A program made the translations under genes and the position numbers. Under the pieces are notes generated by a model. That model made no database searches and was not told where the DNA came from. It saw only the letters and a program-made list of their open reading frames with translations. Below, in pieces: positions 17,451 to 17,546 of a stretch of 64,000 bases of DNA. The stretch's first letter is position 1. Every line of letters begins with the position of its first letter. Origin of the DNA: Escherichia coli O127:H6 str. E2348/69 (lineage in GTDB: Bacteria > Pseudomonadota > Gammaproteobacteria > Enterobacterales > Enterobacteriaceae); NCBI RefSeq assembly GCF_000026545.1, contig NC_011601.1. The stretch is one strand, 5' to 3'.

Positions 17451-17458
17451 ATGAATTC

Positions 17459-17497
17459 AAGCAGAGTGTGAACTTACTGTTTCACACTCTGCTTTTC
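17459..17497 (+). terminator. Rho-independent terminator after ycaD
   Basis: AAGCAGAGTGTGAActtactgTTTCACACTCTGCTTttctg: perfect 14-bp stem followed by a T-rich tract. Confidence 0.6.
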
Positions 17498-17502
17498 TGT
17501 GC

Positions 17503-17535
17503 ACAAAAAAGCGGTAACTCAATAAAGTTGCCGCT
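17503..17535 (-). terminator. Putative terminator after pflA (minus strand)
   Basis: Minus-strand reading aaaGCGGCAACtttattgaGTTACCGCtttttt: hairpin plus T-run. Confidence 0.5.
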
Positions 17536-17546
17536 TTACGGGGAAA

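Follow-up and report, generated by a model that had tools for sequence, protein, structure and literature searches.

In E. coli K-12 MG1655 (b0898-b0902), the convergent genes ycaD and pflA are separated by ycaM on the plus strand, ycaN on the minus strand and ycaK on the plus strand, with 3320 bp between the two stop codons. These three accessory genes are little characterised; family searches assigned YcaM to the APC-family permeases related to Glu/GABA antiporters, YcaN to the LysR regulators and YcaK to the NAD(P)H oxidoreductases. A second arrangement is found in O157:H7 and in an O78:H4 APEC strain, in which an interval of 1849 bp contains ycaM, the last 113 bp of the ycaN 3' end (annotated in RefSeq as a partial pseudogene in O157:H7) and a short, diverged spacer on the ycaK side. 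Further forms are associated with IS1. In strains LD93-1 and H9Ecoli a single IS1 replaces the whole ycaM-ycaK block between ycaD and pflA, while strain EC96 harbours IS1 copies within ycaN. The elements of LD93-1 (locus L084, 4248-4945) and H9Ecoli (locus L085, 5089-5786) point in opposite directions and differ in their left boundaries, with a common right boundary located exactly at the ycaK stop codon. These two forms look like independent IS1-adjacent deletions that started from an insertion hot site. In LD93-1 (L084, 5085-10044), pflA is annotated 57 bp longer, and genes of a P2-like prophage (integrase, Cox and others) occupy the usual place of pflB.

The distance between ycaD and pflA varies from 30 bp to 7.4 kb across the Enterobacteriaceae. 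As examples of the cargo found there, Enterobacter carries a CigR-family protein and Pluralibacter a LysR regulator. Pseudocitrobacter has a choloylglycine-hydrolase-like protein together with a second ORF that resembles the LysR type in sequence, and C. sedlakii has a PA3715-family protein. In Klebsiella spallanzanii, genes for PTS-IIC, a split transketolase and RpiR form a cluster, and the ORFs of Raoultella and some Citrobacter are patterned similarly. The interval is thus a hotspot of gene exchange between two convergent core genes, with recurrent gain and loss in the family. Short direct junctions of ycaD and pflA also occur, and most of these are 30-60 bp long and contain one bidirectional hairpin that both genes share.

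The locus studied here belongs to E. coli O127:H6 str. E2348/69 and lies in a stretch of 64,000 nucleotides (contig NC_011601.1), hereafter called the window. Open reading frame coordinates and RefSeq annotation agree that exactly 96 bp (17451..17546) separate the ycaD stop codon from that of pflA (17547-17549, minus strand), followed by pflB and focA after pflA. No trace of ycaM, ycaN or ycaK was detected: tblastn with the three K-12 proteins gave no hits in the window, and blastn with the K-12 insert gave matches at chance level only over the whole 64 kb. Likewise, no sigma-70-like site was found by a promoter scan of positions 17300-17700, and an Rfam scan of positions 17250-17750 left the spacer without a match, the sole match being located inside ycaD with 17 bits against a gathering score of 51 (E = 0.79). 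The sequence-only reading had described a 96-bp spacer with two convergent hairpins and no gene remnants, opposed to a three-gene interval in K-12. Each of these elements was confirmed, the hairpins by folding and the gene order by the MG1655 annotation, and the case in which ycaD would directly adjoin pflA in K-12 does not apply. The features of the locus are collected in the table.

Features of the ycaD-pflA junction in the window
Feature	Coordinates	Strand	Description
ycaD	16302..17450	+	MFS transporter, intact, 382 aa; stop TAA at 17448-17450; ORF list, RefSeq WP_000109295.1, tblastn 100%
ycaD intrinsic-terminator hairpin	17460..17496	+	13-bp stem AGCAGAGTGTGAA/TTCACACTCTGCT; T-run reduced to TTTT
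Junction bases CTGTGCAC	17497..17504	.	4-8 bases outside flank homology; window aligned to K-12 and other long forms
pflA intrinsic terminator	17505..17537	-	Stem 17511-17534; A6 at 17505-17510 is the U-run on the pflA strand; TTT on the other side
pflA	17547..18287	-	Pyruvate formate-lyase activating enzyme, intact, annotated 246 aa; WP_000111043.1, tblastn 100%

Two other genes of the window carry lesions of their own. A premature TAG (13236-13238) interrupts dmsA at codon 589 of 814 (…FTEGRT*EEWMRHLY…), and the gene is listed in RefSeq for E2348/69 as a pseudogene because of an internal stop. The ycaC gene (15445-15975, minus strand) measures 544 bp versus 627 bp in K-12 and is annotated as frameshifted; the 83 bp that it lacks were deleted near position ~15950, where imperfect direct repeats (…CAGCA..ATTTTTA) bound the deletion. 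JJ1886 and APEC E18055, both B2 strains, have an intact ycaC.

Both hairpins of the spacer, which lie 11 nt apart, have the GC-containing stem-loop followed by a U-run that is expected of intrinsic terminators, namely UUUU for ycaD and U6 for pflA, the latter with one C·A mismatch. The ycaD hairpin (17460-17493, then TTTT) folded with -22.1 kcal/mol and a z-score of -5.0 in a 63-nt fold. Sequence comparison showed the hairpin to be unchanged in K-12, O157, E. albertii and others; at the end of the terminator the long forms read TTTTTTGTTT, so that a T-run of T6 became T4 in the window. Folded in the sense of pflA, the second hairpin gave -13.6 kcal/mol (z = -2.6), compared with -20.3 kcal/mol for its K-12 counterpart. 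The C·A mismatch results from a C-to-T change at position 17515 (GCGGTAACT versus GCGGCAACT in most strains). The exact 75-bp junction sequence with this T is carried by 107 genomes (E2348/69 and 106 others), and the variant GCGGTAACT is also present in GPEC1042, a strain that has retained ycaM. A simple terminator scan requiring five T residues scored neither hairpin as a terminator on the strand of its own gene, because of the short ycaD T-run and the mismatch in the pflA stem. Since both hairpins survived, ycaD and pflA should still terminate independently. Variation in the pflA hairpin was also seen elsewhere: in the B2 strain 19AR0253 (locus L086, about 1560-1570) a deletion of 5 bp takes out its 3' arm (GCCGC), and in Escherichia sp. 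E1V33 (locus L007, about 12955-12985) the loop of the pflA terminator is inverted with respect to E. coli (GCGGCAACTTTATTGAGTTGCCGC versus GCGGCAACTCAATAAAGTTGCCGC).

Alignment of the window with MG1655 revealed the same flanking genes, an identical ycaD terminator and a nearly identical pflA terminator, around 96 bp without genes instead of 3320 bp with three. On the left side, homology to the K-12 flank covers the ycaD hairpin and extends as far as CTGCTTTT at 17496, or to 17500 if one mismatch is accepted; on the right side, homology to the long forms begins at the A-run of the pflA terminator (17505). The breakpoints are therefore the runs that belong to the two terminators, T for ycaD and A for pflA, and the flanks are homologous and collinear with the longer alleles up to these sharp limits. 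Only the junction bases CTGTGCAC lie between them, whose CTGT could correspond to TTGT of the left flank with one mismatch, leaving GCAC outside the homology. The same 8-mer was read in JJ1886, APEC E18055 and 19AR0253, so that the four junctions examined are all identical, which points to a single event, as far as these sequences tell. A relation of CTGTGC(AC) to the ycaN/ycaK relic junction (O157-type AAGCTGTGCTGTAAG, K-12 GATGCACTATAA) was considered as well. It is an unproven lead, consisting of a 5-6-nt match only and demanding a second deletion.

The edges of the block were searched for repeats in K-12 and in GPEC1042. As the sequence-only reading had already stated for the 96 bp, no direct repeat or microhomology was found there, the longest shared word being 6 nt and located away from the breakpoints. 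Within the 96-bp spacer no IS sequence, inverted-repeat fragment or other mobile-element sequence was identified. The locus bears no target-site duplication, and the K-12 block itself encodes nothing other than the permease, the LysR regulator and the oxidoreductase.

The distribution of the short junction was investigated with a 75-bp junction probe in 5426 complete E. coli genomes, using matches at 95% identity or better. It was present in 1046 of them (19%, about a fifth); a 1.1-kb probe ran uninterrupted in 1048 genomes, and 1051 genomes had no match to ycaM anywhere. Conversely, ycaM was present (at least 80% covered) in 4359 complete genomes and the ycaN-ycaK segment (at least 80% covered) in 3318. 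Three main states of the locus can thus be distinguished: ycaM-ycaN-ycaK in about 3318 genomes, ycaM followed by 3'-end relics of ycaN and ycaK in 1024, and none of the three genes in 1046. The clean presence/absence polymorphism proposed earlier is hence real as a polymorphism, but it comprises three main states plus a few IS1-associated deletions rather than two. Matching the junction against E. coli genomes, as had been recommended, also identified its carriers by name, among them JJ1886 and other O25b:H4-ST131 strains, 536, O18 and APEC O2:K1:H7, all of which, like E2348/69, we take to be members of phylogroup B2. From these recognisable strain names and the 19% share we infer that the short junction is a trait of the B2 lineage. 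A search of the literature for ycaM, ycaN or ycaK combined with phylogroup terms did not yield a paper describing their absence from B2.

In order to orient the change, ycaD loci were taken from 80 species-representative genomes and the K-12 proteins were located by tblastn. Between ycaD and pflA, ycaM was found in E. albertii and in three non-coli Escherichia lineages (L003, L004 and L007). Salmonella diarizonae and arizonae carry it at this site too, as do many Citrobacter, Kluyvera and Yokenella. Downstream of ycaM, four Escherichia outgroups retain pieces of the YcaN C-terminus as relics (residues 250-301 in L003, 270-296 in L004, 269-289 in L006 and 270-302 in L007), and in L003 and L007 a 24-nt match spans the 3' end and the stop codon of ycaK. 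Three kinds of relic junction were seen: one common to L003 and L007, another in L004 that retains about 160 bp of ycaN, and a third pattern displayed by the O157-type and E. albertii. The ycaN-ycaK deletion junction of the L003 type had no match in the complete E. coli genomes, which places this deletion outside E. coli proper. With the missing genes or their relics at the same site in outgroups, and with relic junctions that differ, the ycaM-ycaN-ycaK block is old in Escherichia and K-12 is not the gaining lineage; ycaN-ycaK has been lost independently at least three times, and the state of the window is a further loss in which ycaM was taken too. Ancestral presence holds only at the level of Escherichia, Salmonella and Citrobacter, since many genera of the Enterobacteriaceae have no ycaM altogether and the polarity reverses deeper in the family. 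One locus, L005 (8625-16984; CP089930.1, labelled 'E. coli E69'), has ycaM followed by an AT-rich island of >8 kb and not by pflA; judged by eye, ORFs of this island seem to resemble GGDEF/EAL and cellulose-synthase (BcsA/BcsB-like) proteins.

The 96-bp spacer is very probably the scar of one old illegitimate, non-homologous deletion that was fixed in the lineage of E2348/69, ST131, ST95 and 536 (B2). The opposite direction, in which the short junction is ancestral and K-12-type lineages acquired ycaM-ycaN-ycaK by horizontal insertion between the terminators, is highly improbable. It could draw on the direct neighbourhood of ycaD and pflA in Enterobacter, Leclercia, Trabulsiella, Siccibacter, Buttiauxella and C. 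koseri, on the unrelated cargo of other genera and on the slightly low GC content of the K-12 block (0.41-0.50). However, ycaM occupies the site in every non-coli Escherichia sampled and in Salmonella, four distinct Escherichia lineages as well as 1024 E. coli genomes still contain ycaN relics, and the edges of the block are devoid of integrase, IS and direct repeat. Among the directly joined genera, Enterobacter soli, Buttiauxella and Silvania resemble the window in having convergent ycaD and pflA with no gene in between, but their junctions of 30-60 bp are unrelated in sequence and contain one shared bidirectional hairpin (A-run, stem, T-run), whereas the window keeps two separate terminators, the ones found on either side of the block in long-form genomes. 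Of the two directions left open by the sequence-only reading, gain in the K-12 lineage or loss here, the outgroup ycaM, the ycaN relics and the two retained terminators thus argue for loss, and the direction of change is, by this comparison, a loss in the lineage of the window.

As to the way in which the block was lost, an insertion sequence was considered as well, since LD93-1 and H9Ecoli have undergone exactly such a removal of ycaM-ycaK with IS1 still in place, and EC96 ycaN has been a target of IS1. For the B2 junction, an IS1 that inserted, deleted the adjacent DNA and later disappeared is nevertheless very unlikely: the 96 bp hold no remnant of it, its clean loss would need a second event, and on the right the B2 deletion stops at the A-run (17505), a different place from the ycaK stop codon at which IS1 ends. 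LD93-1 and H9Ecoli have lost the same three genes and kept ycaD and pflA, but they still carry IS1 at the junction, have other boundaries and are sporadic instead of lineage-wide. As for an assembly gap, misjoin or collapse in this single sequence, its probability is close to nil, because the finished E2348/69 chromosome NZ_CP059840.2 is 100% identical to the window, and the junction recurs in the 1046 independent complete genomes, in agreement with the 1051 that lack any match to ycaM. The absence of repeat, IS fragment and integrase and the only mildly low GC content of the block make the event look like a plain illegitimate deletion. Its ends lie in the T-run and the A-run beside two strong hairpins, and everything between these runs was removed, that is the promoter and gene of ycaM together with ycaN and ycaK, either intact or, more likely, as relics. 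The net loss amounts to 3224 bp relative to K-12 and to 1753 bp relative to the ycaM-only form.

The flanks of the deletion are those of an ordinary E. coli, with ycaD 98.7-99.4% and pflA 97.0-99.7% identical to long-form strains. No intermediate allele between the long forms and the short junction was found. The O157:H7-type arrangement is, like the window, a deletion derivative of the three-gene block with the same flanks, and differs by retaining ycaM, the ycaN piece and the ycaK-side spacer. In its GPEC1042 allele, from a strain that is not of the B2 type, ycaD and pflA almost match those of the window, with differences from E2348/69 at 7 of 1149 ycaD sites and 2 of 741 pflA sites. This near-identity and the shared GCGGTAACT suggest that the deletion started from an allele with ycaM plus relics, which is somewhat favoured over a K-12-like progenitor. 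The ycaD gene of E2348/69 differs from that of other B2 strains at 23-28 of 1149 positions, mostly within gene positions 117-553. Such a mosaic pattern points to a recombinant allele in one of the lineages; recombination would thus have acted at the ycaD locus and could have carried the junction between lineages.

Taken by itself, the short junction is an ordinary lineage-wide deletion that is visible in public annotation; it involves nothing mechanistically new and matters little beyond bookkeeping. Consequences of the gene loss may be considered from mutants. In K-12, a ycaN mutant is reported to show changed expression of ycaC, ycaD and focA and changed formate use (PMC9068703), and a preprint reported a reduced colistin sensitivity of ycaM knockouts (bioRxiv 10.1101/2025.07.07.662571). 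There is a small chance that the disappearance of ycaM, along with ycaN and ycaK, throughout B2 was adaptive rather than neutral. If so, it might have acted by lowering the killing by polymyxin-like cationic peptides, given the colistin report, or by altering the expression of ycaC, ycaD and focA, given the ycaN-mutant report, and selection against the block would then account for the repeated independent losses of ycaN-ycaK in Escherichia (at least three different junctions plus the IS1 events). The junction does account for the absence of three K-12 y-genes from B2 strains, among them EPEC E2348/69 and the main extraintestinal pathogenic clones. Its 75-bp sequence can serve as a simple marker for the B2-type lineage, and B2 strains represent natural nulls for ycaN and ycaM.
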